62,373 nucleotides of DNA. Source: Promethearchaeota archaeon (lineage in GTDB: Archaea > Asgardarchaeota > Lokiarchaeia > Sigyniarchaeales > SOKP01). Below are positions 35,901 through 61,308 of the stretch, piece after piece; position 1 is the first letter of the stretch, and each line of letters begins with the position of its first letter. The notes beneath the pieces were generated by a model that saw nothing but the letters and a program-made list of their open reading frames with translations, searched no databases and was not told the DNA's origin. Position numbers and translations under genes: made by a program. The stretch lies in the NCBI GenBank assembly GCA_016839705.1, contig JAEOTR010000066.1, positions 1-62,373 of the forward strand, read 5' to 3'.

Positions 35901-36494
35901 ATGAATGAAGTAAAGGATAACAAAATCAATCTTGATGAAATTCAAGTACCAGAAAAGATTCCAACTAAGTTAATCAATTCAAGAGTTATTGTGTTCAATC
36001 CTTTATTCGCGTCTTATTTATATGTAAAAAAGGGTTTTTATGGAAGCCCCTTAGGGATTAATAAGCCCCGATTAGAATACTTTTCAAAACCTAGTGAATT
36101 ATCATTAATTGAAGCGTACTATTTATTAGAAAATAATGAGATCTCTATTTATGATGTGAAAGAGAAAAAAGATTTAAACTCTAAGGAGTTTTTCAAGCTT
36201 GCTAAAATAATTCATAACAAATTTGAAGAAAAGTATATAATTTATAAAGACTTAAGAGAAAAGAAGTATATTCCAAGACCTGGTCTCAAATTTGGAGCTG
36301 ATTTTGTTGTGTATCGTGTTGGACCGGGTCTTGAGCATTCCCTTTTCATGGTACACGTCTTACCACATGATTCTGAGATCACAGCGATAGATATGGTCCG
36401 TGCGGGGAGATTAGCTACATCTGTAAGAAAAAAATATGTCATTGCAAATCCTTTAACCAAATCGTACTATTTTTTTGAGTGGTTTAAACCTTAA
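35901..36494 (+). CDS. endA: tRNA-splicing endonuclease, catalytic subunit
   Basis: LSLIEAYYL, IYKDLR, RPGLKFGADFVVY, PG..HS, R.ATSVRK (Tyr/His/Lys triad region intact). Confidence 0.93.
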   Translation: MNEVKDNKINLDEIQVPEKIPTKLINSRVIVFNPLFASYLYVKKGFYGSPLGINKPRLEYFSKPSELSLIEAYYLLENNEISIYDVKEKKDLNSKEFFKLAKIIHNKFEEKYIIYKDLREKKYIPRPGLKFGADFVVYRVGPGLEHSLFMVHVLPHDSEITAIDMVRAGRLATSVRKKYVIANPLTKSYYFFEWFKP

Positions 36495-36517
36495 ATCCAA
36501 GAAAAAAATTGGTAGTT

Positions 36518-38344
36518 TTATAATAAAGATGAACTTCTTAATTTTTCTATAACCTTGTCTTTCAAAGCTTCAATTTGATGATAATCTTTATTCTGTACAG
36601 TCTGATTTATTCTTAAAATAGAGGTTATAAGATCAGGATCGATAACATTTTCAATCAGTAATCCTCTATTTAGTAAATCCTTACCTTCTTTATAAATTAA
36701 GAGAATGAATTTAATCATACTTAACAACTTTGGCACATCAGTAAAGCTATCTATTTCATCAAAGGCACTTTGGATTAAGAAACCATTTTTAACCAAATTT
36801 GCAATAAAGAGAGTTAACTGTGATTCTACAGGTAAATTTTTTTCACCAATTAATTGAATAACATGTTTTAAATCTTGTTCCTCAGCTAAAATGTCATTTA
36901 TCTGTTCTCGGCATTCTGACCAATCAATATCTATATCTACCCACTCGATATCTCTCTCATACCACCAATCCGCTAGGTATGTATAATAATTTGAATAGGA
37001 GTTAAGCCAATTGATAGCGGGATAATGTTTTAAATAAGCTAAACTAGAATCTAAAGCCCAAAAGACTTGAACTAAACGTTTTGTTGTTGCAGTAACAGGT
37101 TCACTAAAATCTCCTGCAGGAGGAGAAAGAGTTCCAACAATTGTTAGAGATCCAACTCTTTCAATACCATTTTGGGCTCCTCCTAGTGTTTTAACTACAC
37201 CTGCTCTTTCATAAAAACTTGAAAGTTTTGAGGGTAAGTATGCTGGATATCCTTCTTCGGCGGGCATTTCTTCTAATAACCCCGATATTTCTCTTAATGA
37301 TTCAGCCCATCTTGAGGTACTATCTGCGAGAACAGCAACATCATATCCCATATCACGATAATATTCTGCGATTGTAACTCCTGAAAATAAACTTGCCTCT
37401 CGGGCTGAAACAGGCATATTAGAAGTATTTGCTATAAGAACCACTCTTTCTAACAGAGGAGCCCCACTTTTAAGATCTTTAGTTTCTGAAAATTGTTTCA
37501 AAACATTCGCAATTTCATTCCCTGGTTCGCCGCAACCGATGTATACTATTATGTCCGCGTTACACCACTTTGCTAGGGATTGCTGAATAACCGTTTTTCC
37601 AGTCCCGAATCCCCCAGGAATAGCGGTAGTCCCTCCCTTTGCTAGTGGAAATAATAAATCAATCACCCTTAATCCTGTAATTAAAGGCTCATTTGGATCT
37701 TTTTTCATTTTATAAGGTCGACTTTTCGTGATTGGCCATTTTTGTAACATTGTAAAATCCTTATCTTTTCCATCAATATTTATACTAAATATCTTGTCTA
37801 TAATTGTATAATCGCCCTCGATGGCAACAGAAGATAGTTTCCCCGAAATATTTGGTGGAACCATTATTTTATGTTCTAGAAATTGGGTTTCTTGCACAAC
37901 TCCAATAATATCCCCGCTTTCAACCATCATGTCTACTTCTCCTGATGGTGTGAAATGCCATTTTTTAGATCTTGATAAAGAGGGAAATTTAATACCCCGT
38001 TCTAGATTTCCAGATTGATCATTCTCAAAAACTTTTTCTAAAGGTCTCTGTATTCCATCAAAAACATTCGAGAGGAGTCCTGGGGCTAATTCCATTGAAA
38101 GAGTTTCATTCAAACCAACGACTTCATCATTTAATTTTACTCTTATTGTGTTTTCGAAACATTGAACAATTACATGGTCAGAATAAATCTGTATTACTTG
38201 ACCTAATATATCATAATCGGAGATCTTAATCAAAGAATGAAGTTTTACTTGATTTTCTAATCCTTTTACTTTAATAAGCGATCCATTAATTGATGAAATG
38301 TAGCCACTACTAGATTCTTTGTCAATTTTATTTATTGTTTTCAT
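36518..38344 (-). CDS. atpA: A/V-type ATP synthase subunit A, second copy (GER changed to GEP)
   Basis: [37 protein letters not shown]; GCGEPGNE; ATG at 38344 avoids overlap with the upstream gene. Confidence 0.9.
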
Positions 38345-38363
38345 TAAATTTCTTCTCTTTATG

Positions 38364-38801
38364 TTATATTTGTTCCCCACAAAAAGGACATTTATTTTTA
38401 ATAAAATTTGGTAATATATTTCCGCAATTTTCACAATTACTAATTAATGGTTTGCGATATTCAAATTCAAGATCAATGGCTTGAAATATCTTAGGCTGAA
38501 TTTGCTTAGGCTCTTTTTTAATAATTGGAGTTCTCTTCCGTCTTTCCTTCTCATACTTAGGTCCCTTTTTTTTATCTGGAAACATTCTAGAGTAAAGGGA
38601 TCCTCTTTTATTTTTGAGAAAAGGACCAAGAACAATTAAAAATACGAATAACAATAAAAAAAATGCAATAAGAGGATGAGATCCAGATTCTAGTAAAATG
38701 AGATATAAATATAAAAGAAAAAGGAGATATGCAAATAGTATAATGAACCTCAAGATAAGTCCTTTACTAGAGATCTTTTCTTTCCTATTTCCTTTTGACA
38801 T
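38364..38801 (-). CDS. Two-TM membrane protein with C-terminal zinc ribbon
   Basis: Two hydrophobic helices; CENC...CPFCG. Confidence 0.75.
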   Translation of the reverse strand: MSKGNRKEKISSKGLILRFIILFAYLLFLLYLYLILLESGSHPLIAFFLLLFVFLIVLGPFLKNKRGSLYSRMFPDKKKGPKYEKERRKRTPIIKKEPKQIQPKIFQAIDLEFEYRKPLISNCENCGNILPNFIKNKCPFCGEQI

Positions 38802-38827
38802 TGAAATTTGTAACTAAACTTGAATAT

Positions 38828-41299
38828 TTATTTAAATTTATTTTTAATGTAAATTATTGCTTTTTCAACCTCTTCCTTTATTGATTGAATGTCAATCTCT
38901 TTTTCAATCTCCTCAGAAATGACATCTTTCTCAATGCCCACTTTAAAGTTCAAGACTGAGAACTCCTCATCTAAATAGAATGGAAAGAATTCTATACCGG
39001 AACCCTTGTAAAACTTAAAGAAAAACTCATAAAAATGTAATCTGATTGTGTTCAGGAATACTAACAAACCTTCGAGCAAAATAACAATCATATTACCAAA
39101 AATTCCGCCTATTAAATTTACAATCTCTACTCCTATGCCTTCTCCTTCAACTAATCCCATCATTGCATTAATCGATGTTAATAAAGCAATATGAGCAAGA
39201 GCTAATGCTAATAATCTGAGATATGAAGCTACGTTGCTCATAACAGATAAGACTGTATCAAAAGCTTCTATTGAACCTTCGCCTAATAAACCACCCACTG
39301 ATTCTTCTTGTAAATAAGAAATTTTAAAGATTTTTCCGAGAGGTTTAAGTAGTAACAATAAAAGTCCTGGAATTACCGTTAATAAAATCGGGTAGGGGTA
39401 TGATATCCACACATTAATATCAAAACCAACTCCAAAAATTAGGACAGTTCCCCCCGTTAACAAAAATATTTTTATCAGTGAGTCACTAACGGCTAAATAT
39501 TTTCTCCTTTGTTTCCAATAATTCAAAAATTGAACAAACCATCCTAAATTAATATGAAAAACACCAATTAAAACCGCAAAAAAGAAAACATTCATTATAT
39601 TATGTAAAGGATTATACAGAGTAATATTTAAGACCGGGGAAATTAGCACAATGATCAAAGGTAGCAAAAAAAATACTAATCCAATACCGATTAACCAACT
39701 CCCTAATTTGGACTTTGTTATAAATCGATCTATTCCACCAATTATCAGAGAAATCGCCCCCATGCCGGAGATGGTGAGTAATATAGTTGGACTTGGGAGA
39801 ATACTTAACAAATTAATTGGTTGTAGGTGCAAAAGTACATTTCCAAAAATTTCGATTTCATGGTGACCTAAAAACTCTCCGTATAGAAAACCTATAAAAA
39901 AAGCAGCAATTCCACAATACATGATTATCCAAGAAAAATTAAACGCGTCTCCTCTTCGTTTTCTGAATTTGAGGGCACCGAGTAACCCTACTATTATAAG
40001 AACTAAACCATGTCCAATATCACCAAACATCAACCCAAATAAAATTGGGAAAGTAACCGCAATAATTGGTGTCGGATCAATTTCAAAATAATTTGGTGTG
40101 CCATACATTTTAGTTATTGTTTCAAATGGCCTTACTAAAAAGAAGTTTTTCATGACAGTAGGAGACATTTCTCTTAGATCTTTCTCTTCGCTATGTTCGT
40201 CAGTTTCTTTCAAATCTTCTTTGTATTTTATTTCAATTGAAGCTTTGCTTTTTTTACTTTCAGAACGCTCCCTTCTTGATTTTAAAGTAAAGTCTTCATA
40301 AACGGGTCGTTTTTTAGAGATATCGATAGTTTGTAGTACAATCTCATCTTTAAAGATTTTAAATAAAGTATCCTGAATTTCTTCCTGTTTAGATGAGGGA
40401 ACAAAGAATTTAAGAAGTACTCGATAATCGGATAATTTTTCGAACTGTTGTTCAGCCCAAAGATACTCCTCGATGTTCTGAACAGTTTCATTAATCCCAG
40501 CAAACTTTAGCAAGTTCTCATCTGTTAATCGGCGCTGTTCTTTCTTATATCTCGATAATAATTTTTCAATAAAACTAATTTCTTTATCAATTCTTATGAA
40601 ATTAGTTCCTTCAGTTGTTAAATATTTTTTTAGGATAAAAACTTCTTCAGAATGAATTAAACGTATTCTACCATTGAATTCTTCATCTTTATCTTTTGGA
40701 TAGAAAATATAAAATCCTATTCTTTCGTCTGATATGGGGAAAGTTTCATAATAATTGGGAAATTCGGTGTAAGTAAATAGATTTTTTAAGTTGGTCAAAT
40801 TTTTCGAAAATGTTGTGAAAACTCGAAATTTAAATTGTTCTAAACTACCTATTGTCCCTTGTATCATATTCAACTTTTCGAGATTTTTATAACAAACTCT
40901 TATTACCTTTACGTTCTCGAGTTCGATAGTACCTTTGGTAATGTAATTATTTAATTCAGCAAATCTGTTGTGATAGAAATCTATTTCTTCAAGGATTTGA
41001 TTAATTAATTCTTCTAAATTTTTCGCTGAAAATTCTATTCTTTCAGATTTATCAATTTTTAAATCTTTAATATCTACTTCATTGAGATTTAATCTTCTAA
41101 ACAATGACTCTAAATTCTTCCTTAAAGCTTTAATTTTTTCCAAAATGGGTTCTTTTTCTGTTAAATCCTCTTCAATTTTTGATTTTTCTTTCTGTTTTAT
41201 GTGGACAGTATTTAAATTAGAGAGTGTTATTAAGAATTGATCCCTATAATTGTGATTTAGTTCTGCTCTTATTAAAGTAAATTCATCTTTTTTAGTCAT
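38828..41299 (-). CDS. atpI: A/V-type ATP synthase subunit I (a)
   Basis: PFE.ITKMYG.P.Y.EIDPT, FGLMFGDIGHG, SYLRL.AL.LAH, RLHFYEFF.KFY.G. Confidence 0.93.
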   Translation of the reverse strand: MTKKDEFTLIRAELNHNYRDQFLITLSNLNTVHIKQKEKSKIEEDLTEKEPILEKIKALRKNLESLFRRLNLNEVDIKDLKIDKSERIEFSAKNLEELINQILEEIDFYHNRFAELNNYITKGTIELENVKVIRVCYKNLEKLNMIQGTIGSLEQFKFRVFTTFSKNLTNLKNLFTYTEFPNYYETFPISDERIGFYIFYPKDKDEEFNGRIRLIHSEEVFILKKYLTTEGTNFIRIDKEISFIEKLLSRYKKEQRRLTDENLLKFAGINETVQNIEEYLWAEQQFEKLSDYRVLLKFFVPSSKQEEIQDTLFKIFKDEIVLQTIDISKKRPVYEDFTLKSRRERSESKKSKASIEIKYKEDLKETDEHSEEKDLREMSPTVMKNFFLVRPFETITKMYGTPNYFEIDPTPIIAVTFPILFGLMFGDIGHGLVLIIVGLLGALKFRKRRGDAFNFSWIIMYCGIAAFFIGFLYGEFLGHHEIEIFGNVLLHLQPINLLSILPSPTILLTISGMGAISLIIGGIDRFITKSKLGSWLIGIGLVFFLLPLIIVLISPVLNITLYNPLHNIMNVFFFAVLIGVFHINLGWFVQFLNYWKQRRKYLAVSDSLIKIFLLTGGTVLIFGVGFDINVWISYPYPILLTVIPGLLLLLLKPLGKIFKISYLQEESVGGLLGEGSIEAFDTVLSVMSNVASYLRLLALALAHIALLTSINAMMGLVEGEGIGVEIVNLIGGIFGNMIVILLEGLLVFLNTIRLHFYEFFFKFYKGSGIEFFPFYLDEEFSVLNFKVGIEKDVISEEIEKEIDIQSIKEEVEKAIIYIKNKFK

Positions 41300-41309
41300 T
41301 CAACCCAGC

Positions 41310-41957
41310 TCAAAAAATTTCTTGTTGTTTTATAATAATATCTTTAGTTTTTTTCAATCTTACATAATTTTCTCTTTCAATTTCTTCTAAACTATCTTTA
41401 ATCTGTTTAATATCTACTTTTAATTTTGGAATTATTACATTTTTCAACCCATTGATCCTTCGATTTACATTTTTAAAATTAATCGAAATCTTTAATATTA
41501 AATCTTCAATTTCGGAAAATTGGCTAATATTTTCAAGCAATTCTTTTAATGAATTAATTAAATCTTCAATATAATGACTTGTACCATCGAATGTATATGC
41601 TGGTAATTTTTCTTCTTCAAATATTTCATAGTCTAGTTGAGAAACTAGAATTCCCATTTTTTTAATATTTTCAATGTGTATTCTCGGTTTATACTGGATT
41701 CTACTCAATTTGCTAATTAAATTTAATCCATTCTTTCCCATTTCTCGATAGGTTTTATTTAAGTAGCTTAGAGATTTCTTATATGTAATCATAAACTCAC
41801 TTCTCCCCTTGAGATAATCATTCCATAAATTAGAAATTTGAAACATCAATTGCTCCCTTCTAAATTCTAAAAAAGTTGCTCCTTTAATCGCGAATGATAA
41901 TCTCTTCCGTAAAGCCATTAAATTTGTTTTTGTAGCTTTAACTTCTCTAAAACTTAT
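41310..41957 (-). CDS. atpD: A/V-type ATP synthase subunit D
   Basis: RRINGLKNVIIP, LEEIERENYVRLKK; conserved N-terminus (ISFREVKATKTNL) extends to ATA at 41957. Confidence 0.88.
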   Translation of the reverse strand: MSFREVKATKTNLMALRKRLSFAIKGATFLEFRREQLMFQISNLWNDYLKGRSEFMITYKKSLSYLNKTYREMGKNGLNLISKLSRIQYKPRIHIENIKKMGILVSQLDYEIFEEEKLPAYTFDGTSHYIEDLINSLKELLENISQFSEIEDLILKISINFKNVNRRINGLKNVIIPKLKVDIKQIKDSLEEIERENYVRLKKTKDIIIKQQEIF

Positions 41958-41960
41958 AGC

Positions 41961-43352
41961 CTACACCTTTGGTTGATAATATTTATCGATAAATCTTTGA
42001 TGTATTCTAATTAATTGGTTTTTACTTAAGTTAGAAATTACATCCCATGCAATTGTTAAAGTCATATTGAAATCTCGATTTTCATTCGATTTCTGATTTA
42101 AAAATACTTCTTCAAATTCTCTTCCAAACTTTAATATGCTTTGTTGATCATAATTTAGACCATCTTCACCAACAATTGAGATAAGATCTTTAACTTCAAG
42201 ATAATTTGAATATGATGCTAATAATTGAGAACTCACATCAGCATGATCTTCTCTAGTACTCACTTTACCGATAGCATCTTTCATTAATCGAGAAATTGAC
42301 GCTAACACTTCAAAAGGAGGGTAAATACCTTTCTTATGTAAGTTTCGGCTAAGAACTAGCTGTCCTTCAGTGATGTATCCAGTAGTGTCAGGGATGGGAT
42401 GCGAGATATCATCGTTTGGCATTGTAAGTATCGGGATTTGTGTTATCGATCCCTTTTTCCCTTTTATCATCCCAGTTCTCTCATAAAGAGACGCAAAGTC
42501 AGAATAAATATATCCAGGATATCCTTTTCGACTTGGTATCTCTTCTTTAGCAGAGCTAAGTTCTCTTAAGGCTTCTGCATAATTAGTCATATCTATTAAT
42601 ATAACAAGAACGTGCATATCTTTTTCAAAAGCAAAATATTCCGCGGTGGTTAAAGCCACCCTAGGTATGATTAATCTTTCAATAATAGGATCATCCGCAA
42701 AATTTATAAAAAAGATGATATTTTGAAGGGTTCCACTTTCTTGAAATCGTTTTAGAAAGTAAATTGCCTCATCCTGAATAATTCCAATTCCACAAAAAAT
42801 AATTGCAAAGGGTTCTTCTGAAGTGACTTTCGCTTGAGTAGCTATTTGAGCTGCGATTTTATTATGAGGTAATCCTTGACCACTAAAAATAGGAAGTTTC
42901 TGACCTCTAATCAAGGTAAATAATCCATCAATTACAGATATTCCCGTCTGAACAACTTCTACAGGATACAATCTAGCGAAAGGATTTACAGGAATCCCAT
43001 TTATATCTCTCTGAACATCGGTCAATATATCAGAATCTAAAACAGTTTTTGTTTTGATATCAATGGGCTTTCCCATGGAGTTAAATGTCTGTCCAAACAT
43101 GTCTTTTGAGATCTTAACGTTGAAAATGTCTTCTGTAAATATAATTTCTGCATTTTCGGAAGATATTCCAGTAGTATCTTCAAAAACTTCAACAATAATT
43201 AAATCCTCACTCATTTTTACTATTTGTCCCGTACGGATAATATTGTCGTCGGTCTTAATTTTTACAATCTCGCCATACTGAGCGTCATGTTCATTTTTCA
43301 GAAATAATAAAGGTCCAATTATTCTTTGTATTTTATTATAAATTACACTCAT
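41961..43352 (-). CDS. atpB: A/V-type ATP synthase subunit B
   Basis: RGQKLPIFSG.GLPHN, DMTNYAEALRE, GYPGY.YSD, HPIPD.TGYITEGQ. Confidence 0.95.
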   Translation of the reverse strand: MSVIYNKIQRIIGPLLFLKNEHDAQYGEIVKIKTDDNIIRTGQIVKMSEDLIIVEVFEDTTGISSENAEIIFTEDIFNVKISKDMFGQTFNSMGKPIDIKTKTVLDSDILTDVQRDINGIPVNPFARLYPVEVVQTGISVIDGLFTLIRGQKLPIFSGQGLPHNKIAAQIATQAKVTSEEPFAIIFCGIGIIQDEAIYFLKRFQESGTLQNIIFFINFADDPIIERLIIPRVALTTAEYFAFEKDMHVLVILIDMTNYAEALRELSSAKEEIPSRKGYPGYIYSDFASLYERTGMIKGKKGSITQIPILTMPNDDISHPIPDTTGYITEGQLVLSRNLHKKGIYPPFEVLASISRLMKDAIGKVSTREDHADVSSQLLASYSNYLEVKDLISIVGEDGLNYDQQSILKFGREFEEVFLNQKSNENRDFNMTLTIAWDVISNLSKNQLIRIHQRFIDKYYQPKV

Positions 43353-45190
43353 CTTTTGAAAACTCCTCTCGTTAGTTTTAATGATTCAATTTCATTCAAT
43401 AATATCTTTTTTAGAGATTCTATTTTCATGAATTTATCATTGGGAATCTCTTGACCTATTCTCAAGACATCATTTATAGTACGAAGGGATTTAATATCTT
43501 CCATATAAAATCCTTGTTTCATAAGCTCTTTACCCTCCTTATAGATTAACAGGATCATCTTAATCATTCCCAATAGTTTGCCTGTGCTGGTATAGTTATC
43601 AATCTCATCGAATGCATTTTGAATTAAGAACCCTTCTTTAATTAGTTTCGCTATAAATAAATCTAATTGCTGATCTTCAGGTAAATTTTCTTCTCCTATT
43701 AATTGTGTAACATATTTTAATTCATTATCTTGTGATAGAATATCGTTAACTTGCTGACGACATTCAAACCAATCGAGATCCATTTCTGACCAATTTATAT
43801 CTCTTTCATACCACCATTCAGATATATAATCTGGATAATTTGAATAAGAGTTTAACCAATTAATCGCAGGATAATGCTTTGAATAAGCTAAAGCTGCATC
43901 TAACGCCCAGATTCCTTGAACAAAGTTTTTAGTTGTTGTAGTCACTGGTTCACTAAAATCCCCTGCAGGAGGAGATACTGAACCTACGATAGTTAAAGAC
44001 CCAAATCTCTCCTTCCCAGATTCATCTTTTCCAAATACTTTCACATGGCCAGCTCGCTCATAAAAGCTAGAAAGTCTTGAAGGTAAATATGCAGGATAAC
44101 CTTCTTCGGCAGGCATTTCCTCCAATAATCCAGAAATTTCTCTTAAGGATTCTGCCCATCTTGAAGTACTATCTGCAAGAACTGCAACATCATAACCCAT
44201 ATCTCTATAATATTCTGCTATAGTGACTCCCGAAAAAATACTAGCTTCCCGAGCAGAAACTGGCATGTTAGAGGTATTGGCAATTAATATTATCCTTTCT
44301 AGTAAAGGACGTTCACTTTTAGGATCGATCAGCTCAGTAAATTGTTTTAATACATCAGCTATCTCATTGCCACGCTCTCCACAACCCACAAATATAATTA
44401 CATCAGCATTACACCATTTAGCAATCGACTGTTGAATAACGGTCTTTCCTGTCCCAAAACCTCCTGGAACTCCAATTGTACCACCCTTAGTTATTGGAAA
44501 AAGTAAATCTATAACTCTCATCCCGGTGATCAATGGTTCTTTCGGCTCCCCCCGCTCCATAAAAGGTCTAGATTTATTCACGGGCCATTTCTGAAGCATA
44601 GTAAAAGACTTCTCGTTATTATCTATGATTACCCGGTAAATTTCATCTTTATTTGTATAATCATCTTCAGACGTGATAAATGATAATTTTCCGGTGATAT
44701 TGGGGGGAACCATTATTTTATGTTCAATTAGAGGAGTTTCTTGCACAACTCCTATAATATCGCCACCTGTTACATTCTCATTAATCTCTCTTACTGGAAT
44801 AAAATGCCACTTCTTTGTTCTTGATAGGGAAGGTATTTCTAATCCCCTTCTTAGACTTCCGTCCTTATAAAGATTAAAAGCGCTTTCTAGTGGTCTCTGG
44901 ATTCCATCAAAAACATTTCCTAAGAGTCCAGGTCCCAATTCCATAGAAAGAGGTTCATCTAAAGATATTATTTGATCATTAATACGTAAGCTAGTAGTAT
45001 TTTCAAAACATTGGGCAACTACATAGTCAGAATAAATGTGAATTACTTCTCCTAGAATATTTTGTTTACTAACCTTAATTAAATCATGGATTCTAACACT
45101 ATCTTCAATTCCCTTAATGTGTATCAAAGAACCACTTATTGCGGAAATAAAACCATATTGGTGAGTGCTATTAGAATTGGATTTGATCAT
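43349..45190 (-). CDS. atpA: A/V-type ATP synthase subunit A
   Basis: [37 protein letters not shown]. Confidence 0.96.
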
Positions 45191-45899
45191 ATTGTTCGAG
45201 ATATTCGGATATTTTTGTTTTTTGATTTTGAATAAATTTGTTAAAGTTATCTTCTATTTGCTTAATTTCTGAATCATTGACAATTTTAGAAATTTCCATT
45301 TGGATAAATGAGGATTTGATATCTATTAAATTATCAATTGTATAATCATAAGAGATTGTCCCACCGACTAATGAAATTTTAAATCCTCCTATAAAATCAT
45401 CCGCATCTTTATCAATTTCAACAGGATTTTTAAACAAACCTTGAATTTTACTATAATCCTTTAATAAATAATTATAATCCCGAGAGTTAAAAATAAGTTC
45501 TATTTCTTGGGGTTTGTTTATAGTATTCTTAATCTCTCTTATATTATTTATTAAAAATTCTATATATTTTGGATAATTTTTTTCTATTTTCTCTTTTATA
45601 AGTTTAGCTAGACTACTTTTTAATTCTTTAATTAATCGGTTTTTCAAAGCCATAAACTTTTCTTTACCTTTCAGTAGAGTATTTGAAAGCATTTGATTTA
45701 AAAAGTTATCATAGTTATCTATAAAATGCTCTTTTAATTTTAAAGATCGTTCATCACTTCTTTCAAAAAACCTTTTCTTTATCTCAGCTTTTTGAAATAA
45801 TGTTTGTTGATTGAATTTTTTAATCTCTTCTTGAGCTTTCTCAACTAAATACAATCCTAAGTTGCCAAACGTTTTCTTTGTATCTTTTTCTTCTGAAAT
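45171..45899 (-). CDS. atpE: A/V-type ATP synthase subunit E
   Basis: Helical N-terminus, IGGFKI...YDYTIDN; operon position; probable ATT start at 45899 after GAGGT. Confidence 0.8.
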   Translation of the reverse strand: MSEEKDTKKTFGNLGLYLVEKAQEEIKKFNQQTLFQKAEIKKRFFERSDERSLKLKEHFIDNYDNFLNQMLSNTLLKGKEKFMALKNRLIKELKSSLAKLIKEKIEKNYPKYIEFLINNIREIKNTINKPQEIELIFNSRDYNYLLKDYSKIQGLFKNPVEIDKDADDFIGGFKISLVGGTISYDYTIDNLIDIKSSFIQMEISKIVNDSEIKQIEDNFNKFIQNQKTKISEYLEQYDQIQF

Positions 45900-51645: not shown

Positions 51646-52284
51646 TTACTGATAAAGTAAAATTCTTATTTGATCGGCTATATCGTGTATGCGATCTGCG
51701 CACTGTTCAAGTAAAACGATACTATCTCTAATTCTAAGAAGTTTCCTAATATCCAACTTTTCATTAGAATATAAAAATTCAAGAAATTGTCGATATATAG
51801 TATCAATTTCATTTTCGAGTTCATGAATTGCGGTTGTATTCTTAAATACAATATCGGGCTTATCTCTCAAGCTTTTTATTGTTGATTTTAAAACATCCGC
51901 CATTTGAATAGTTTTATTTATTAATTTTTCATATCTTTTTATTATTTCTTCATCCTTATTCCCATCTAATGTTATCTTTGGGAGCATGTCGACTAATTCT
52001 AAGGGATAATTAATCACATTGTCCATTTTTAGGATTAAAGCGACGTAGTCTCCTAAACCTTGCGCTCCCGCTTCAGAATAATTTTGGATTAGCTGAATTT
52101 TTATAGCATCTCCATCTTCTTCACGCATTTGCATCTTATTTTTTTTCTTGTCTAAGGTTTCCTTGTTGGATTCATAGTCTTTTGCCCACGTTGAATAATA
52201 TACGGCCATATCGGATATAACTGAGTATATAATCCTGGAATGTTCAATTAACATTGAAATAATTTCATCTTTAATCTTGTTCAT
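51646..52284 (-). CDS. DUF47 family (PhoU-like phosphate transport regulator)
   Basis: EEDGD, IHELENEID, LEQCADRIHDIAD. Confidence 0.85.
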   Translation of the reverse strand: MNKIKDEIISMLIEHSRIIYSVISDMAVYYSTWAKDYESNKETLDKKKNKMQMREEDGDAIKIQLIQNYSEAGAQGLGDYVALILKMDNVINYPLELVDMLPKITLDGNKDEEIIKRYEKLINKTIQMADVLKSTIKSLRDKPDIVFKNTTAIHELENEIDTIYRQFLEFLYSNEKLDIRKLLRIRDSIVLLEQCADRIHDIADQIRILLYQ

Positions 52285-52487
52285 AAGATATCAACTAAAA
52301 ATTTTTATTTTCTCTTATAACAATAAATGATTAAATACATAAAAATTTAGGTTTACAGAAAATAAATAGTAACGAGCCTATTAATATATGATCCTATCAA
52401 TTTTCTAATTAGTTTTTGAGTGATATATGATTTTTAATATTAAAATTACATTTGATTTAAGGATTTAAGAAATTAAGGTGGATAAAT

Positions 52488-53273
52488 ATGGAATATAAGC
52501 ATCTTTTGATTGAAAAGCGTGATGATCATATAGCTATAGTTACACTTAACCGTCCAGATCAGTTAAATACATTAAATTCAACTCTAATGCGTGAAATTGA
52601 ACATTTAACAGAAGAGTTTCAAGAAGACACAGAAACACGTGTAGTGATTTTTACTGGTGCGGGTAAACATTTCTGTGGAGGAGCAGATTTGAAGGAATCA
52701 GGAAAACCAGCTACGTTACTTGAACAAACTAGAGCAAAGCAAATTGGTCCGAGAATGATACGGAAAATCTTTATGATGGACCAAATTACCATAGCAGCAA
52801 TAAATGGTGGGGCTTTTGGAGGAGGATGTTGTATTGTTACCGCTTGTGATTTTCGAATTGGGGCTGAAGGCTGTTTGGCAGGTTTTCCAGAGTCTAGATT
52901 AGGTATGAACTTATCGTGGGGGGCGGTCCCCTTAACAGTCCATGTAATTGGTCCAACATATGCTAAAGAAATGATTATTTTAGGTAAGAATAATGATGCC
53001 CAAACACTTTTGAAGTGGGGTTTTCTAACTGAAGTAGTATCAAAAGAAAAATTATTAGATCGGGCAATTAAAATCGCTAAGGATTACACCGAAGTACCTC
53101 CAATTCCTGCCCAAATGATTAAAAAGAGTATAAATCACGTCATTGGTGCATTGGATCAAGCAATAATGCACATGGATGCGGATCAGCATACGTTAACGAT
53201 GAGAACAGAGGACTTAAAGGAAGGGATTGCCGCATTCTTCGGAAAGCGTGAAGGAAATTATAAAGGAAATTAA
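52488..53273 (+). CDS. Enoyl-CoA hydratase/isomerase family protein
   Basis: TLNRPDQLN, FCGGADL, IAAING.AFGGG, CDFRI, FPE. Confidence 0.92.
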   Translation: MEYKHLLIEKRDDHIAIVTLNRPDQLNTLNSTLMREIEHLTEEFQEDTETRVVIFTGAGKHFCGGADLKESGKPATLLEQTRAKQIGPRMIRKIFMMDQITIAAINGGAFGGGCCIVTACDFRIGAEGCLAGFPESRLGMNLSWGAVPLTVHVIGPTYAKEMIILGKNNDAQTLLKWGFLTEVVSKEKLLDRAIKIAKDYTEVPPIPAQMIKKSINHVIGALDQAIMHMDADQHTLTMRTEDLKEGIAAFFGKREGNYKGN

Positions 53274-53506
53274 AAAATATTAAAGTTATAATGTATTTTA
53301 CCAATTTTTTTTTATCATACTCCATCAATTAGAAATCGATTATTCAAATTGAAAGTCAAAAAGCATGAAAATTTATTTTTGTAGAATAAAATATATTTAA
53401 AATAAAAATAGTATATAAATAATTTATCGACATGATTTGCATTATTTTAACCAGAATACTTACTACATAAATACTAATTATTTTTCAAAGGAGAAAATCG
53501 TAAAGC

Positions 53507-54157
53507 ATGCGTAAAACCTTAAAGAATTGGAGACAATATGGAAAACTGTCAGATTTAGGGGAAATAGCTCGTCGTAAATTTTTCAATAATTGTTTTGATG
53601 GCGCTTTAACTTGTGCCGGAATTGTTAGTGGGATATTTATAATCTTTATTGGGTCAGGCACAATTCTATTTACTCCTCAAAATGTATTAATTACAGGCTT
53701 AGCGACAACCCTCGCGATAGGGATTTCAGGACTCTGGGGAGCTTTCTTATCTGAGGAAGCCGAACGTAAGAAAAAAGTGTATGATATGAAAAAGGATATG
53801 GCAATGGTTGAGGAGCCCACGGAACTTAAAAATGGAGAGGAAAAAAAAAATGAAAAGAATAACGATAAAACCTTGCTCGAAAAAGCGGAAAATTTCGCTA
53901 CAATTGTTGCTTCCTTGGTCGATGGAGGTGCTCCTGCAGTAGGAAGTATACTACCATTAATCCCCTTCTTCTTTGGGACAACATTAACAATATCGCATTT
54001 TATCTTTTCATATGTAATTCTTGCTGGTTTACTAGTTTACTTAGGTATCTTTTTAGGAAATATTTCAGGGGGAGGTAAGGTACGATATGCACTCCACTTG
54101 GTTACTGCTGGGGTGGTAACTTTATTGGTTAGTTTATTACTTGGACAAATAACTTAA
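53507..54157 (+). CDS. VIT1/CCC1 family transporter
   Basis: ARR.F.NN.FDG, SG..GA.LSE.AER, PLIPF. Confidence 0.85.
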   Translation: MRKTLKNWRQYGKLSDLGEIARRKFFNNCFDGALTCAGIVSGIFIIFIGSGTILFTPQNVLITGLATTLAIGISGLWGAFLSEEAERKKKVYDMKKDMAMVEEPTELKNGEEKKNEKNNDKTLLEKAENFATIVASLVDGGAPAVGSILPLIPFFFGTTLTISHFIFSYVILAGLLVYLGIFLGNISGGGKVRYALHLVTAGVVTLLVSLLLGQIT

Positions 54158-54266
54158 AAAATGGGGTTTCATATTTCATATTTAAAATTATCAACTATTG
54201 AACAAATTAGGTGCATCTCTGCGAAATATTTATGATTTTACTTAAAATTTTTGATGTATTTAAATA

Positions 54267-55013
54267 ATGATTAAAAAATTAAAAATTTACAACGAAATTA
54301 CTCATTTTAGCTTAATTGCACGGAGATATTTCGTGAATAATTTTTATGACGGTATGCTGACAATTCTAGGGATTTTACTTGGATTTTTTATGTTTATTGT
54401 ATATAACCCAGAGATAACCTCTATCGAATCTATTCTCGTTATATTTCCTAGCTTAGGAACCTCAATTTCTATGTTCATATCAGGTGTTTCAGGTTCTTAT
54501 CTTTCTGAAAGAGCAGAACATAAAAAAGAAAAAAGAGAATTAGATAAAGCCATGGTAATACTAGAGGATGATCAGATCGAAGAGATAAATAGACTACCTG
54601 AATTCAAAGTAAATGAAGAAATTCAAAAGGCAATGGTAACTCCAATTAATATCAGCAATTCATTTAAAAAGAAAAATCCGGTTAAAATCAGAAAGAAAAG
54701 TCAGAAAAAGAAGAAGTCAAAGACAAAAACTATTCATGAGAAAGCGGAAAGATTTGCTAATGTATTAGTTTCTTTTACAAATGGTACAGCTCCTCTATTA
54801 GGAGGGATAGTCCCCTCAATACCTTTCTTTTTCATCCAAAATGCAGGAATGTGGACTTTTATTATATCTTTTCTAACAATATTTATTTGTATAGTGTTTC
54901 TAGGGATTTTGTTGGGAGTAATCTCAAAAGAATCTATAATTAAAAATATTTTAGAAATGACAGCAGCATTCATAGTTACTCTTTTAATATCATTTCTGAT
55001 CTTGAGAGTCTGA
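54267..55013 (+). CDS. VIT1/CCC1 family transporter (tandem paralog)
   Basis: ARRYFVNNFYDG, SG.SGSYLSERAE, P.IPF. Confidence 0.85.
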   Translation: MIKKLKIYNEITHFSLIARRYFVNNFYDGMLTILGILLGFFMFIVYNPEITSIESILVIFPSLGTSISMFISGVSGSYLSERAEHKKEKRELDKAMVILEDDQIEEINRLPEFKVNEEIQKAMVTPINISNSFKKKNPVKIRKKSQKKKKSKTKTIHEKAERFANVLVSFTNGTAPLLGGIVPSIPFFFIQNAGMWTFIISFLTIFICIVFLGILLGVISKESIIKNILEMTAAFIVTLLISFLILRV

Positions 55014-55095
55014 TTAAATTGTCGTTTTAATATAATAAATTTTATCTTTTGGCTTTCATTTTTCTTTCTATAAACATATAACGTCGAGATTAATT

Positions 55096-55907
55096 TTGAA
55101 AGCATTCGTAGGAATAGATATTGGTTCTTTAGCAACAAAAATTGCCCTTCTGGAAAACAATAATTTAATAGATTTTCGAACAGAAAGATCCACCTTCGAT
55201 TTTAAAAGAATTGGACAGACAATGTTCAATGACATATTAGTAAAAAATAATTTGAATAGAGAAGATGTATTTGCAATGAGCACCGGCTACGGTAGAAATA
55301 CTGTGCAGTTCGCTGATGATCGAATTACAGAAATTACTGCTCACGCTCGGGGAGTTCAGTTTTTTTTCCAAGACGCTCATTCAGTTATCGATATAGGGGG
55401 GCAAGATAGTAAAGCTATATTGATATCACAAAAAACGGGGAATGTAATTGACTTTCAAATGAATGATAAATTTCAATTAGATAAACCTAATTGAAGTCAA
55501 AATGTGCTGCCGGTACAGGCAGATTTTTGGAAGTCATGGCAAATGCACTTGAGGTCCCGATTGAGGAGATTGGAGGATTAGCTCTAAAATCAAATGATCC
55601 TGCGTCAATAAGTTCCACATGTACGGTTTTTGCAGAATCTGAAGTCATATCACTGTTTGCCAAGGGAACAAAGAAAGAAAATATTGCTGCCGGAATTCAT
55701 AAATCAATTGCTAGGAGAGTTGCAGGAATGGCAAAACGTATAGGTGTAACTCCTTTACTGGTTTTTTGTGGTGGTGTAGCTAAAAATGTAGCAGTTAAAA
55801 AGTTCTTAGAAGTAGAGCTTGGATATGAAATCGTAATTCCTAATCAACCGCAACTAACTGGAGCCATTGGAGCCGCCTTAATTGCTCAAGAACATAATGG
55901 TGACTAA
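55096..55907 (+). CDS. 2-hydroxyacyl-CoA dehydratase activase (HgdC/BadFG-type ATPase), interrupted by a 32-nt insertion
   Basis: GIDIGS, TGYGR, EITAHARG, IDIGGQDSK, MNDK|CAAGTGRFLE, STCTVFAESE; removing 32 nt gives a contiguous 259-aa ORF. Confidence 0.9.
55470..55501 (+). other. Candidate BHB-type mRNA intron (32 nt)
   Basis: Central helix UGAU/GUCA, AAA bulges, inner stem ttcaattag/ctaattgaa; excision restores GAT AAA TGT (D-K-C). Confidence 0.7.
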
Positions 55908-55997
55908 TACATTTAGTAGTTAATTTTTATACTAAAAAATTTTATGAGCAATTAACTCTTTTTTGATTAATAATTCACAATTATTTTATTTAAGAAA

Positions 55998-57128
55998 ATG
56001 GATGACATTGAACTTCTATCGGAATATTATGCATTCCTTCAAGAAAAGAAGGGGGAAGGGAAAAAAGTTGTGGCTTTTATGTCACATGATAATATTCCTG
56101 AAGAATTAATAGACGCAGCGGGATTTGTTCCCCTAAGAATGATCTTTGCGGGAAATGATGAGTTAATGGATGCTAGTCATGATTTTCTTTCTCCCTCAAC
56201 TTGTGCCTTTGCTCAATCCTGTATAGGTGTATTTTCCGTTAAACCGAATATGTATAAGTTTTTAGATTTGATAGATTATTTTATTCTCTCAAATCATTGT
56301 GTATCAGATATATGTGCTTCTGAAGTTATAACTAAATATTTTAATATCAAACGTTTGAATTTTTATGTATCCTATACGAAGACTGAGAATAGTTTAAAAT
56401 ATTTCAAAATTGAAGTATTAGATTTAAAAAAACAACTTGAAGAGATTAAAGGGACTGAAATAGGTGTTCAAGAGTTAAAGAATAGCATTAGAAAATACAA
56501 TGAGTTTAAAAAAAAGTTAATGGAAATCAGCAATACAATTAAAAGCGGCTCTCAAAAATTAAAAATTATTCAAAAAGCAATGTTATTTGGTCCTGATATT
56601 CTCCCTGAATTAGATAGTACAATCTTAAAGCAATCAGAAATCCAAGTATCAGATAAAATCAAAGATATTCTATTAACGGGATGCTCTATTTTCATTAATG
56701 ACTATTTACTTGATTTAATTGAAGAAGGTGGTGGTAACGTTGTTTTTTTTGATACATGGGTTGGATTTAATTATTATTACCAAATAATAGATGAAAATGT
56801 CTTAAATTCTACAAAAGATCCAATTGATATACTTACCCATCGATTTGAGAAAAATTTCTACGGAGATCATTCCGTTCCAAATTTTCTTCAACGAAAAGTA
56901 TCACACATAGACACGTTTTCTAAAGACTATGAAAAGAAAACGGGAAAAAAAATAGGGGTTATAAACCATATCATAAAGTTTTGTGATCATATGTCAATTA
57001 TGTCTTCCCATTTGAAAAATAAGTTAAAAGTAAAAGGTATTTATGTATTAAATTTAGAGCGAGATTATTCTAGAGCAAATAGAGGTCAATTATCAACAAG
57101 AATAGAGGCATTTTTGGAGATGATGTAA
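55998..57128 (+). CDS. 2-hydroxyacyl-CoA dehydratase subunit (BcrC/BadD/HgdB family)
   Basis: PEELIDAAGF.P, C.F, KFCD, GQLSTRIEAFLEM. Confidence 0.88.
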   Translation: MDDIELLSEYYAFLQEKKGEGKKVVAFMSHDNIPEELIDAAGFVPLRMIFAGNDELMDASHDFLSPSTCAFAQSCIGVFSVKPNMYKFLDLIDYFILSNHCVSDICASEVITKYFNIKRLNFYVSYTKTENSLKYFKIEVLDLKKQLEEIKGTEIGVQELKNSIRKYNEFKKKLMEISNTIKSGSQKLKIIQKAMLFGPDILPELDSTILKQSEIQVSDKIKDILLTGCSIFINDYLLDLIEEGGGNVVFFDTWVGFNYYYQIIDENVLNSTKDPIDILTHRFEKNFYGDHSVPNFLQRKVSHIDTFSKDYEKKTGKKIGVINHIIKFCDHMSIMSSHLKNKLKVKGIYVLNLERDYSRANRGQLSTRIEAFLEMM

Positions 57129-57131
57129 TAG

Positions 57132-58490
57132 ATGAGTTTAGTTGCAGATGAATTAATACGATTTTCTTCAGTGTTGAGAATTGCCTACAATTTTTTAAAT
57201 GGAAGGGACTTTTTAAAGCGAAAAAAATTTCGAGAAAAAAAGAAGTTAATTTCTGTAGGTTTACCTTTTTCTGATTTAGTTTATGGATTTCCTGATTTAA
57301 TTCCCGTTTTTCCCATAAGAATGCATGAATTTGAAATTCATAAATATCTCACTTATTTAGGTTCTTCTTCCAAAATATTTGGTTGGGACCGTGTTACCAA
57401 TTTTTTAGGTTGGGTAAAAGATTTAGGTATTAAAGATATAAGTCAGACCGTTGATGATATAATTGAAAACGTAATAGATACAATAAACAGCAAATACAAT
57501 GAGATGTATGATATTGGAGTAGAAAACGGGATATCTACTGACTTTTGTTATGGTGTTAAATCACTTTATGGAATGAACGTATCAAAAGGGAAGAATTGTG
57601 ATGCAAATTTAAATTATACTATTCGTTGTAGCACCTGGAATAAATATCTAGAATCGATAGAAGCAATAGGAAACCCTTCTAAACAAATTTGGGTTGAAAT
57701 TCCCCCAAGAAATATTGGGAATTCCTTAGAACTTTTTATCGATAATATCACTCAGGGAATAAATGAATTAGAAAAACTAAGTAATTTTAGTTATAGTGAA
57801 AATGCATTAAGAAATCATTTTCAGACCGCTAATCAAATTCGTCAATCCTACAAAAAAATAATTTATGATATAAGTACCGCTGACTTCTATCCCTGTAATC
57901 CCGCAACATTTTGCGAAATTCTTTCGTTATTAAATATTAGTTTTCATGATTATAATTCCAATGCTACTCGTTATAAAGATAATACTACTCTTTTGTTAAA
58001 TGAAATGAGAGGGAGAATTAATAAGGGTATTGGTATGGATGTTTCAAAAATGCCCAAAATTTTAATTACACCCATGTTTGGTGGTTGGGAACCAAAAATG
58101 CATGATATAATCTACGAATTGGGAGGAAGAGTCTTGTATGGAGATTGGGATTTATTACGCTTTTTAGATGATATTCCGATTTCAAACAGAGCTGATCCTG
58201 TTGAAGCATATGCTGAATTTTTAATGAATGCAACCGAAAATGGCATTGGGTGTGATAACGATATTCTCACAGATTCCTATGTAAGATTAGCTAAGAATTT
58301 AAAAGCTGATGGACTTGTATTTGTCCAAGTGTTTGGTTGTCATTCGGTATCAAATTGCTATACTATGTTAAGAGAAAAAATACGGCGAGAATTAGAAATA
58401 CCAAGTATAGCGCTTAATTTTAATAAAATGGGGGAAAATGTAGAGCAAGTTCGTACCAGACTCGGTGCATTTATGGAAATGTACAAATGA
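57132..58490 (+). CDS. 2-hydroxyacyl-CoA dehydratase subunit (HgdA/B family)
   Basis: DFCY, DGLV...FGCHS, EQVRTRLGAFMEM. Confidence 0.8.
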   Translation: MSLVADELIRFSSVLRIAYNFLNGRDFLKRKKFREKKKLISVGLPFSDLVYGFPDLIPVFPIRMHEFEIHKYLTYLGSSSKIFGWDRVTNFLGWVKDLGIKDISQTVDDIIENVIDTINSKYNEMYDIGVENGISTDFCYGVKSLYGMNVSKGKNCDANLNYTIRCSTWNKYLESIEAIGNPSKQIWVEIPPRNIGNSLELFIDNITQGINELEKLSNFSYSENALRNHFQTANQIRQSYKKIIYDISTADFYPCNPATFCEILSLLNISFHDYNSNATRYKDNTTLLLNEMRGRINKGIGMDVSKMPKILITPMFGGWEPKMHDIIYELGGRVLYGDWDLLRFLDDIPISNRADPVEAYAEFLMNATENGIGCDNDILTDSYVRLAKNLKADGLVFVQVFGCHSVSNCYTMLREKIRRELEIPSIALNFNKMGENVEQVRTRLGAFMEMYK

Positions 58491-58515
58491 ATTATTAGGT
58501 GTACAATGGAGAAAT

Positions 58516-59235
58516 ATGACAAAAGAAATTAATAAAAGCAACAGTAATAATCTAATCTATATAATTGATAACTATTCAGCTAACTTTCAGACCGACCGAA
58601 TAAAAAACTTGCTGGATATTTTTAGTGAAAAAATCCCTAAGACTAGTGTTAAGGTTATTCATTACTCTCAAGCAGACTTGGAGATCCTAAAATATAGCAG
58701 TGGGATAATTCTTACAGGATCTGAAATCAATGTGTCTGAGTTTTATGCAAATAGGGTCTTACGTAAGAAATTCAAATTAGTACTTAAACTAATTAAAAAA
58801 GCTAAAAACATTCCTATATTAGCAATTTGTTATGGTCACCATTTAACGGGCTTTATATTTCATGGAAAAGTATATCGAATGAATATACCACACGATGGTG
58901 GAAGAATTATTCCACTATTGTTAAACAAAACAGATAGGTTAATTCCATACAAAAAAATAATTGTAGATATTCAACATCGAGACTACATACTCCCAGATGA
59001 CCTTAAATTAAATAAGAAATTTGAAATAATAGCAACTAAAGATCTATATGGTTACAGTACAATCCAATATATGCGTCATATAAATAGACCTATTTACTCA
59101 GTTCAATTTCATCCCGAAACTCATCTTGCAAGTTATATCTATAGAAATGAGGATGATGAAGAAAGGATTAAAGAAGCAAAACAATATGGAGAAGAAATTA
59201 TAATAAATTTTGCGAATATCTGTAAACTAAAATAG
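58516..59235 (+). CDS. Class I glutamine amidotransferase domain protein
   Basis: IIDNY, GIILTGS, PILAICYGH, VQFHPE; ATG at 58516 after GGAGA. Confidence 0.88.
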   Translation: MTKEINKSNSNNLIYIIDNYSANFQTDRIKNLLDIFSEKIPKTSVKVIHYSQADLEILKYSSGIILTGSEINVSEFYANRVLRKKFKLVLKLIKKAKNIPILAICYGHHLTGFIFHGKVYRMNIPHDGGRIIPLLLNKTDRLIPYKKIIVDIQHRDYILPDDLKLNKKFEIIATKDLYGYSTIQYMRHINRPIYSVQFHPETHLASYIYRNEDDEERIKEAKQYGEEIIINFANICKLK

Positions 59236-59358
59236 ATATCAAAAACCAATATTTTATCAAACCGATTCTTAAAAACTTTAATACAAACAAGATTTATAAC
59301 ACAATGTAGAATTTTAAAAAAAACCGCATGATCTGAACCTCTTGGAGACTTCTATAGA

Positions 59359-60708
59359 ATGAGCATATATGCCGATGATGTTGTAGGTTTTACTTCAGTA
59401 TTGAAAATTGCTTATAACTTCTTAACTGGTAGAGATTATTTACTAAAGAAAAAATCCAAGGAAAAAAAGAAATTAATTTCAGTCGCTTTAGGATTACCCG
59501 ACTTAGTTTTTGCAGCGGATTCAATCCCAGTTTTCCCGATTCGAATGGAAAGATTTAAACTTAACTTATATCTGATAGCTCTTAATACGGCGAAAAGTTT
59601 ATTTGGATGGAATATTACAACTGATCTACTCGGGATTGCGCATCAACTTGATTTCTTAAAAATAGTCGATTCAATTATCAATGACGTAATAAACACTATT
59701 AACATAAAATACAATACAATGTTTGAGTTGGGAATAAAAACTAGTAAATCCCCTGAATTATGCTATGGAGTACACTCAATTTATGGCATGCACAAATCTC
59801 AACATGAAAATTTAGATGCGAATTTAAATTTTACAATAAGGTGTGATGAGTGTAATAATTATTCTAGTATGTTGAAATCGATGATCCCTAATCAGATCTG
59901 GGTTGGGATCCCTTCAGAAAGTGAGGAAAATGTTTTAGATCGCATGAAGCATAATCTCGAGAAGGCAATTACTGAATTAGAGCATATTACTGGCAATGTA
60001 GTTACTGATAATAGTTTAAAAAAACAATTTCGTATTGGTAACCAAGTTAAGAGATATTATAAAACGATTTTACATGAAATAGGTTCTTCAGAGTTTTACC
60101 CATGTAATCCTGCGACATTCGCTGAAATTTTAGGTCTCCTCACAATATCTTTTCAAGACTATAATTCTAATGCTCAAAGATACTTAGAAAATATGAGTCA
60201 ATTAGTCAAGGAGATGAGAGAACGAATTAAGAAAGGTATAGGTATGGATGTTTCAAACACGCCTCGATTGCTCATCTCCCCAATATTTAATGGATGGGAT
60301 CCCGAAATTCATGAAATTATCTATAAATTTGGTGGTCGAGCTATTTATGCTGATTGGGATATTTTAGGATTACTGGATGAGATACCAGTATCAAAAGATT
60401 CAGATCCAATTGAAGATTATGCTCGATTTCTTTTGAATGCTTCAAATAAGGGAAACCAATGTCTAAAGAATTGTGATACATTAGCGAATTCATATTCAAG
60501 ATATACTAAAAAATGGGCTTTTGATGGTATTATTTTCAATCAAGTGCTGGACTGTCATCCAAATTACTCAAACTGTTATGAATTATTAAAAAATAAAATA
60601 AGAAATGAACTGAGAAAACCAACTGTTGTAGTAAGATTTAAGAAAATAGGGGAAAATGTAGAAGAAGTAAAAACTAAATTGACTCCTTTTATGAATTTGT
60701 TTGCGTAA
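59359..60708 (+). CDS. 2-hydroxyacyl-CoA dehydratase subunit, paralog of 57132-58490
   Basis: Shared blocks IAYNFL.GRD, PVFPIRM, FYPCNPATF.EIL, GIGMDVS, GENVE. Confidence 0.8.
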   Translation: MSIYADDVVGFTSVLKIAYNFLTGRDYLLKKKSKEKKKLISVALGLPDLVFAADSIPVFPIRMERFKLNLYLIALNTAKSLFGWNITTDLLGIAHQLDFLKIVDSIINDVINTINIKYNTMFELGIKTSKSPELCYGVHSIYGMHKSQHENLDANLNFTIRCDECNNYSSMLKSMIPNQIWVGIPSESEENVLDRMKHNLEKAITELEHITGNVVTDNSLKKQFRIGNQVKRYYKTILHEIGSSEFYPCNPATFAEILGLLTISFQDYNSNAQRYLENMSQLVKEMRERIKKGIGMDVSNTPRLLISPIFNGWDPEIHEIIYKFGGRAIYADWDILGLLDEIPVSKDSDPIEDYARFLLNASNKGNQCLKNCDTLANSYSRYTKKWAFDGIIFNQVLDCHPNYSNCYELLKNKIRNELRKPTVVVRFKKIGENVEEVKTKLTPFMNLFA

Positions 60709-60714
60709 CCTTAC

Positions 60715-61308
60715 CTACGCACCAAAGAAATCTGATGGTTTGAGTAGGTGTTGATCATCTTCTTCCTTCTTTGCCTTCTCATGGGGATCAACCCATTCTT
60801 CATCTTTTGCTTTAGTAATGCCTCCTCCCGGTGCTTTAAGAACCGGAGGATTTAGGTTACTACCTGCGGAAATCTCTTCAGGCCGTTGTCCAACAGAGAC
60901 AGCTTGAGTTGGAACATAAGTTATACCCCCAGATTTTAAGACTTTGAGTTCACTCATGACTTTTTCTAAATTCATTGTTTGTACGCTCTTATTCATAGTA
61001 TCCATTATTTCTTTTAAGGATTTTGACGTTTCTCGTAAGCCTTTTGGGTTAATTCCGGTTAACAGAGAATCTAAATTAGCACTAATGCTTTCATTTAACT
61101 CGTTTAACGATTCCAATACAGTACTCCAATGTTTATTCATCTGAGATTCAATGGCGCTAATCATCTTGATAGTTTCGTTCATGAAATTCACGGAGCAGCC
61201 CTATGTGGGTAGCTCTTTCACGTGCGCCTCGTATCTCTCTTCATCCTTAGCCCGAAGATCAGATATTAACATTATAAGCTTCCGTAAAGCTTCTTTCTCT
61301 TCACTCAT
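60715..61308 (-). CDS. Hypothetical helical protein interrupted by a 30-nt TAG-containing insertion
   Basis: ATG at 61308 (MSEEKEALRKL...) is in frame with ORF 60715-61191; the only stop is TAG 61201-61203 inside a GC-rich hairpin; spliced length 187 aa. Confidence 0.75.
61187..61216 (-). other. Candidate BHB-type mRNA intron (30 nt)
   Basis: mRNA sense: CGUG-AAA-gagc(ua)ccc-acaua-ggg(cu)gcuc-CGUG-AAU; excision gives CAC GTG AAT TTC (H-V-N-F). Confidence 0.65.

Follow-up and report, generated by a model that had tools for sequence, protein, structure and literature searches.

Contig JAEOTR010000066.1 of Promethearchaeota archaeon assembly GCA_016839705.1 holds two protein-coding genes that are each broken by an insert of about 30 nt, which raises the question of whether the inserts are spliced from the mRNA or have destroyed the genes. 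The window was the whole contig (62,373 nt), C56 of the source genome G000, a metagenome-assembled genome of 3.36 Mb with 31% GC, 93% completeness and 6.8% contamination. The first-pass annotation, made from the letters of the window, had suggested that both inserts are bulge-helix-bulge (BHB)-like introns handled by the tRNA splicing endonuclease EndA, which is encoded on the same contig. Comparison with related genomes indicates, at a probability of about 0.88, that both are tRNA-type introns with a relaxed BHB motif that are spliced from mRNA. The motif belongs to the folding class HBh', which consists of a 4-bp helix, 3-nt bulges and an intron hairpin, without an exon-exon helix.

The first gene encodes an acyl-CoA dehydratase activase and is broken into two open reading frames (ORFs; 55096-55494 and 55491-55907) that match the two parts of the PF01869 profile given in Table 1. 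Its insert introduces a frameshift and a TGA, and interrupts the Lys codon immediately before the Cys of the NDKCAAG motif. Excision yields a 259-aa activase with NDKCAAG whole. The insert of the second gene holds an in-frame TAG, and excision gives a protein of 187 aa, the length of the intact orthologs, with 21 of 21 residues around the junction matching the ortholog in the congener G006. The two inserts of 30 and 32 nt that had been called from the sequence are therefore real. The misannotation expected for such genes was also found, as the public annotation of the second product (P0001) is a 155-aa truncation.

Motif 1 has a TGAT/GTCA helix with one G-U pair, bulges AAA and AAA, a 9-bp hairpin and one spare U. 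Motif 2 has a CGTG/CGTG helix with two G-U pairs, bulges AAA and AAT, and a 4-bp stem plus an inner stem. The description of both as BHB-like holds for the central helix, the bulges and h'; the strict hBHBh' form does not apply, as the exon-exon helix is 1 bp in each motif and at least 2 bp are needed.

Table 1. Positions of the interrupted genes, their introns and the EndA gene in the window.
Feature	Position	Strand	Evidence
Exon 1, acyl-CoA dehydratase activase (BadF/BadG/BcrA/BcrD ATPase)	55096..55469	+	PF01869 profile 1-137; TIGR00241; orthologs
Intron 1, 32 nt (candidate)	55470..55501	+	Absent from most orthologs; other hairpins at same site in 6 congeners and 3 genomes of another genus
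Exon 2, activase	55502..55907	+	PF01869 profile 133-271; spliced ORF 259 aa, dN/dS 0.067
HBh' motif 1	55464..55502	+	Sequence; folding z -3.5 for 81-nt region
Parts of motif 1	helix arms 55464-67 and 55496-99; bulges 55468-70 and 55500-02; hairpin 55471-95	+	
Exon 1, conserved hypothetical protein, 30 codons	61217..61308	-	Junction comparison with G006 ortholog
Intron 2, 30 nt (candidate), HBh', helix arms 61222-19 and 61192-89	61187..61216	-	
Exon 2, conserved Promethearchaeota hypothetical protein (187 aa spliced)	60715..61186	-	
endA, catalytic alpha subunit, 197 aa, Y138 H146 K177	35901..36494	+	PF02778 and PF01974; TIGR00324 over cut-off
Crenarchaea-specific loop (CSL) / L1 loop of EndA, K55 at the place of Aeropyrum K44	36033..36092	+	Alignment to 3p1z_B, 3ajv_B

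Orthologs were compared across 54 genomes of the genus, of which 48 carry the activase and 51 the second gene; the latter has one match in G000. An insert interrupts the activase in 7 of these 48 genomes; for the second gene the figure is 8 of 51. The activase inserts measure 27-35 nt and all occur at a single base. Their hairpins are mostly unrelated; the TGAT/GTCA pairing is kept, with an end formed by GTCA and an A-starting bulge. In another genus, three genomes recovered by a search that used the motif have the same activase arrangement; one of them has TGAC as its exon arm, a full complement of GTCA. Two alternative insert sites, 9 nt apart, occur in the second gene. The site of intron 2 is also filled, with other hairpins, in G001, G077 and L232, and the intron arm at this site is CGTG, CGCG or CACG, each of which pairs with the exon CGTG. 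Synonymous exon bases of the helix are fixed in carriers, which are kin and not independent (CGTG in 3/3 versus 1/30 non-carriers; CATG in 5/5 versus 8/30). The central helix has 4/4 pairs in both window introns and in all 23 inserts tested, and each of the 46 bulges begins with A. Inserts defined by homology, which are likewise not independent of one another, fit the motif in 23 of 23 cases, versus means of 2.7 for shuffled sequences and 3.6 when moved to other host sites.

An assembly or sequencing artefact, a concern given the metagenomic origin and contamination of G000, has almost no probability in view of these comparisons: genomes that are independent of each other hold different inserts at the very same base, two separate assemblies (L237, L238) share the G077 insert without a difference, and three (L228-L230) have the G021-type insert.

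The position of the cut was examined in 24 introns by shifting the excised segment up to 3 bases. Judged by the conserved residue, a cut after bulge base 2 was among the best registers in 24/24 and the sole best in 7/24; the register of the two window introns is ambiguous by themselves because of short repeats. In the G004 activase, where the bulges are AAC and ATA, the conserved Lys is obtained only with the cut after base 2. This register fits EndA chemistry and not ribosomal hopping. Ribosomal bypassing, a hop from one codon to a matching one known from T4 gene 60 and the mitochondrial byps, would produce the same proteins without splicing, and each insert of G000 does provide identical take-off and landing triplets (GTG/GTG; AAA/AAA) that enclose a hairpin and a stop. 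However, the codon match is gone in orthologs (AAC/ATA in G004; also G077, L232, G014 and G012), and in these copies the conserved residue is restored, or the pairing kept, only if the cut follows bulge base 2. Moreover, there is no stop directly after the take-off codon, and the upkeep of the 4-bp exon-intron helix would be unexplained, which makes bypassing very improbable.

The interrupted copies were also compared with their nearest intron-less copies for the ratio of nonsynonymous to synonymous substitution (dN/dS). The values were 0.05-0.12 at dS of 0.36-1.4, and in G000 they were 0.067 for the activase and 0.068 for the second gene, with intron-less medians of 0.083 and 0.061, respectively. 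All 15 interrupted copies gave full-length frames after splicing, with no second lesion, and are therefore not decaying pseudogenes. These results bear on the view that the inserts are never spliced but are hairpin insertions, either resembling miniature inverted-repeat transposable elements or arisen as fold-back duplications, which leave pseudogenes or split genes. A 6-nt direct repeat flanks intron 2, exon 2 of the second gene has an ATG 6 nt from its start, and the activase has an intact paralog, all of which would suit such insertions. Beyond the dN/dS values, which are like those of intact copies, this view is opposed by the continued conservation of exon 1, by the single-copy state of the second gene, and by the loss of the direct repeat in G077 and L232 with the pairing retained. 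The nine introns recognised in G000 (see below) have no common sequence and no copies elsewhere, and no inner word longer than 15 nt is repeated in the genome, which speaks against a mobile element. We regard unspliced insertion as very improbable. Orthologs, register and dN/dS instead favour the earlier proposal that the inserts act as EndA-type introns in Asgard protein-coding genes.

Two introns in 62 kb had been taken to imply many more genome-wide. Strict and relaxed motif-first scans of the genome were swamped by chance, and among their hits an excess of A-starting bulges was confined to the most stable folds (8/15 versus 15%). As the motif is not enriched at frame-restoring positions, only homology tells real sites from chance. 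A census that made no use of the motif was therefore performed on 1,379 genes from 2.4 Mb of G006 against G000, in both directions. With a filter for internal, cleanly aligned frame-breaking inserts, chosen after inspection of the data, six were found in G000 and three in G006, and 9/9 were HBh' motifs of 27-32 nt, versus 0/61 of the in-frame, stop-free inserts. At least 7 of the 1,379 genes are interrupted in G000, which scales to about 16 of 3,100, and this count is a lower estimate since the RNase HII gene, with a first exon of 10 codons, was missed by the census. At least nine introns were found in the genome, and we estimate that some 15-20 genes (~0.5%) are interrupted. The expectation of further introns was thus correct, but its implied number of about 100 was not; the window holds several times the genome average.

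The hosts of the nine introns are the activase, the hypothetical gene, iscU, dodecin, an EF-2-like gene, two small GTPase-like genes, RNase HII and thioredoxin, the names of the seven beyond the window being putative, as they rest on motifs read by eye. These seven introns, in RNase HII, thioredoxin, iscU, dodecin, the EF-2-like gene and the two small GTPase-like genes, lie at C25 ~55280 (+), C49 ~124157 (+), C85 74326 (+), C29 83095 (-), C82 11187 (+) and 13897 (-), and C97 90099 (-). They are 27-32 nt long and of class HBh', the thioredoxin intron with 3/4 helix pairs.

Three HBh' introns (28, 30 and 30 nt) were seen in stretches L061-L180 of G006, a single-contig genome, in genes that are intact in G000. 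Most census introns lie within the first 200 coding bases, and this 5' bias may be real, through 3'-biased loss, or may reflect few cases. A further 31-nt candidate at C29 ~8702 (+), unconfirmed by homology, shows four helix pairs, a long hairpin, and bulges that begin with A.

The EndA encoded in the window has an intact catalytic triad, and H146 aligns with the His mutated to Ala in 3ajv_B. Its best solved match is 3p1z_B, the Aeropyrum alpha subunit (E 1e-34). The resemblance of its loop to the CSL, noted in the first-pass annotation, was confirmed: the alignment with the Aeropyrum loop in 3p1z_B and 3ajv_B has no gap, and K55 falls on the residue counted as K44. A sequence pattern recovered the loop in 18 of 20 congener loci, and in these it is near-invariant, with the Lys retained. 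An RtcB gene, also presupposed by that annotation, is present as an intact copy on G000:C25 (full PF01139, no stops). RtcB is the ligase of XBP1 splicing in animals. The L1/CSL insert in Asgard (alpha-beta)2 EndA has already been published, and the Aeropyrum CSL enzyme removes HBh' introns efficiently in vitro, while loop-less enzymes do not (PMC5829648). The 25 kb under study contain endA, an A/V-type ATP synthase operon, metabolic genes and both interrupted genes, with endA 19-25 kb from the introns, across the ATP synthase operon. In several relatives endA lies 12-20 kb from the activase gene, intron or not, so its proximity to the introns is incidental.

We propose that, in the pre-mRNA, four exon bases would pair with four bases near the intron 3' end, forming a helix that adjoins a 3-nt bulge and the intron hairpin. 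An (alpha-beta)2 EndA with the CSL, tolerant of relaxed motifs, would cut after bulge base 2, and RtcB would ligate the exons, so that the reading frame is restored, as for cbf5. Most of the introns would be passengers that the cell tolerates, removed by a constitutive housekeeping pathway; they would be rare (~0.5% of genes), patchy among lineages, and moved from strain to strain by homologous recombination that includes flanking exon DNA. From the sequences we infer both the action of this EndA and RtcB and the near-neutrality of the introns, the latter because of their patchiness and strain polymorphism.

The carriers are scattered across both gene trees, in which many deep nodes are weakly supported. 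L234 and L237, DNA assemblies of two strains of one related species, encode an identical 193-aa protein from the second gene, and only one of the strains has the intron (L234:1200-1600 versus L237:900-1500). Their exon 2 sequences agree from base 97 onward; before that point, 20 of 96 coding bases differ, all silently, and the upstream spacer is unrelated. This patch of spacer, exon 1 and intron indicates that intron-bearing and intron-less alleles have been swapped by recombination; the crossover would lie a few bases beyond the intron, and the swap could have run in either direction. An exon tract of G001 matches distant carriers and not its sister G047, which is suggestive of a similar exchange. 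As to origin, a short duplication could give rise to sites with palindromic tetramers, and other sites would need an inverted copy.

The same turnover bears on whether the introns are a regulated switch similar to IRE1/XBP1, as the first-pass annotation had speculated, by which expression of the host genes would be tied to EndA or RtcB activity. In favour of a switch, unspliced mRNA would give a dead product; the introns are found at conserved motifs (ahead of the activase Cys, RNase HII DEAGR-GP and thioredoxin WCGPC), and a BHB intron in the Haloferax 5' untranslated region (UTR) affects expression (PMC7714728). Target conservation is low, however: each intron is present in only about 15% of congeners, scattered on the trees, two sites 9 nt apart are used in one gene, and presence and absence occur within a species. 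Intron length modulo 3 and loop sequence also vary, the host genes have no common pathway, and Pfam gave no stress-sensing domain on EndA. The speculation is thus unsupported and we consider a switch unlikely.

Several observations weigh against mRNA splicing of the two inserts. That both window genes are spliced in the cell is deduced from DNA comparison. Two of the pairs in the central helix of intron 2 are G-U, and another fold is just as stable. The intact activase paralog lies on C40 of G000, and intron 1 therefore need not be essential. Frame-restoring hits of the motif-first scan numbered 191, against 182 and 168 for off-frame hits; the predicted excess of the motif over controls was thus seen for inserts defined by homology and not in the motif-first scan. 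Without its post hoc filter, the census gave 9 of 25 frame-breaking inserts that fit HBh', the 16 others being near gene ends or poorly aligned. Finally, the EndA beta subunit was not found in the G000 assembly, which is 93% complete. Most congeners have a second EndA paralog, and two neighbours of the beta paralog in G006 were likewise not found in G000, probably through an assembly gap.

The closest known case is the BHB intron of cbf5 pre-mRNA in Desulfurococcales and Sulfolobales (Watanabe 2002; Yokobori 2009, PMC2738675). Like the inserts studied here, it is a short coding-sequence intron with an unconventional BHB motif cut between bulge bases 2 and 3, with a variable interior, a location at a conserved motif, and both gain and loss; its EndA is hetero-oligomeric, as is predicted for the enzyme here. 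In contrast, the cbf5 intron is proved by cDNA and occupies a single position in a single gene, whereas the Asgard introns, recognised from DNA, occupy at least nine unrelated genes per genome, vary among species, use two sites in one gene and are polymorphic among strains. Non-canonical tRNA introns of Asgard archaea have already been described (PMC11291895; bioRxiv 10.64898/2026.10.13.758758); they share the motif classes, including HBh', the repeated gains, the lack of shared intron families and the enzyme, but those papers cover tRNA genes only, and the words 'mRNA' and 'cbf5' are absent from the main text of the bioRxiv paper. The 5' UTR BHB intron of Haloferax HVO_1309 also has EndA acting on mRNA, and differs in being a single case, in an untranslated region, with an alpha'2-type enzyme; that 2020 paper gives cbf5 as the only other mRNA case (PMC7714728). 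IRE1/RtcB splicing of XBP1 (PMC13149111) likewise removes a short frame-changing intron without a spliceosome, but with another nuclease, two-stem-loop recognition, stress regulation and a conserved target, none of which was seen here. In the literature searched, which left most subscription journals outside its scope, there was no report of Asgard mRNA introns. The mechanism is thus known, and its use in many unrelated coding genes with rapid turnover is undescribed in that literature, where documented archaeal mRNA splicing amounts to one coding gene (cbf5) and one 5' UTR.

It is likely that Loki-type Asgard archaea routinely splice mRNA without a spliceosome in 10-20 unrelated genes per genome, and that the introns are born, lost and swapped among strains on a short time scale. 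If so, EndA and RtcB are all that Asgard archaea need to tolerate interrupted protein genes across the genome, and a living population of mRNA introns exists in the archaeal group closest to eukaryotes, with gain and spread watchable at the strain level. This is relevant to how cells dealt with intron-containing mRNAs before there was a spliceosome, although the introns are mechanistically unrelated to spliceosomal ones. Intron origin is testable, as near-identical strain pairs differ at single introns. About 0.5% of genes in such genomes are probably annotated as truncated or broken, including those for RNase HII, IscU, an EF-2 paralog and Rab-like GTPases, and such misannotation distorts metabolic and eukaryotic-signature inventories.

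The second gene matched no Pfam or NCBIfam family, its atlas cluster is labelled 'hypothetical', and no function was found for it; a 'reverse gyrase' label (JGI) on some of its homologs was rejected, being without Pfam support. In a close homolog on a low-coverage contig (L226:520-690), most of exon 1 is seemingly lost and the homolog starts about six codons upstream of the internal ATG. In the activase gene, a 5-bp exon hairpin at 55507-55522, directly after the 3' bulge of intron 1, can also form in G004, G069 and G077 but not in the G005 group, and it may prevent exon 2 from competing with motif 1.

Three database proteins were considered as leads to spliced transcripts, full-length entries that equal truncated ones being the starting point, and none was retained: P0135 comes from a DNA metagenome and represents an intron-less allele, P0136 had no DNA behind it, and P0003 is short for another reason. 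An exact search of metagenome contigs gave 0 matches to the spliced junction and 0 to the intron-bearing form.

ARAGORN and Rfam gave no match in the window, and a scan for sigma-70 promoters, a model unsuited to archaea, gave hits at chance level. In the whole genome ARAGORN called only 31 tRNA genes, several of them odd, which suggests unrecognised tRNA introns or gaps. The ATP synthase operon contains two A/V-type A-subunit genes, at 36518-38434 (638 aa) and 43349-45190 (613 aa).

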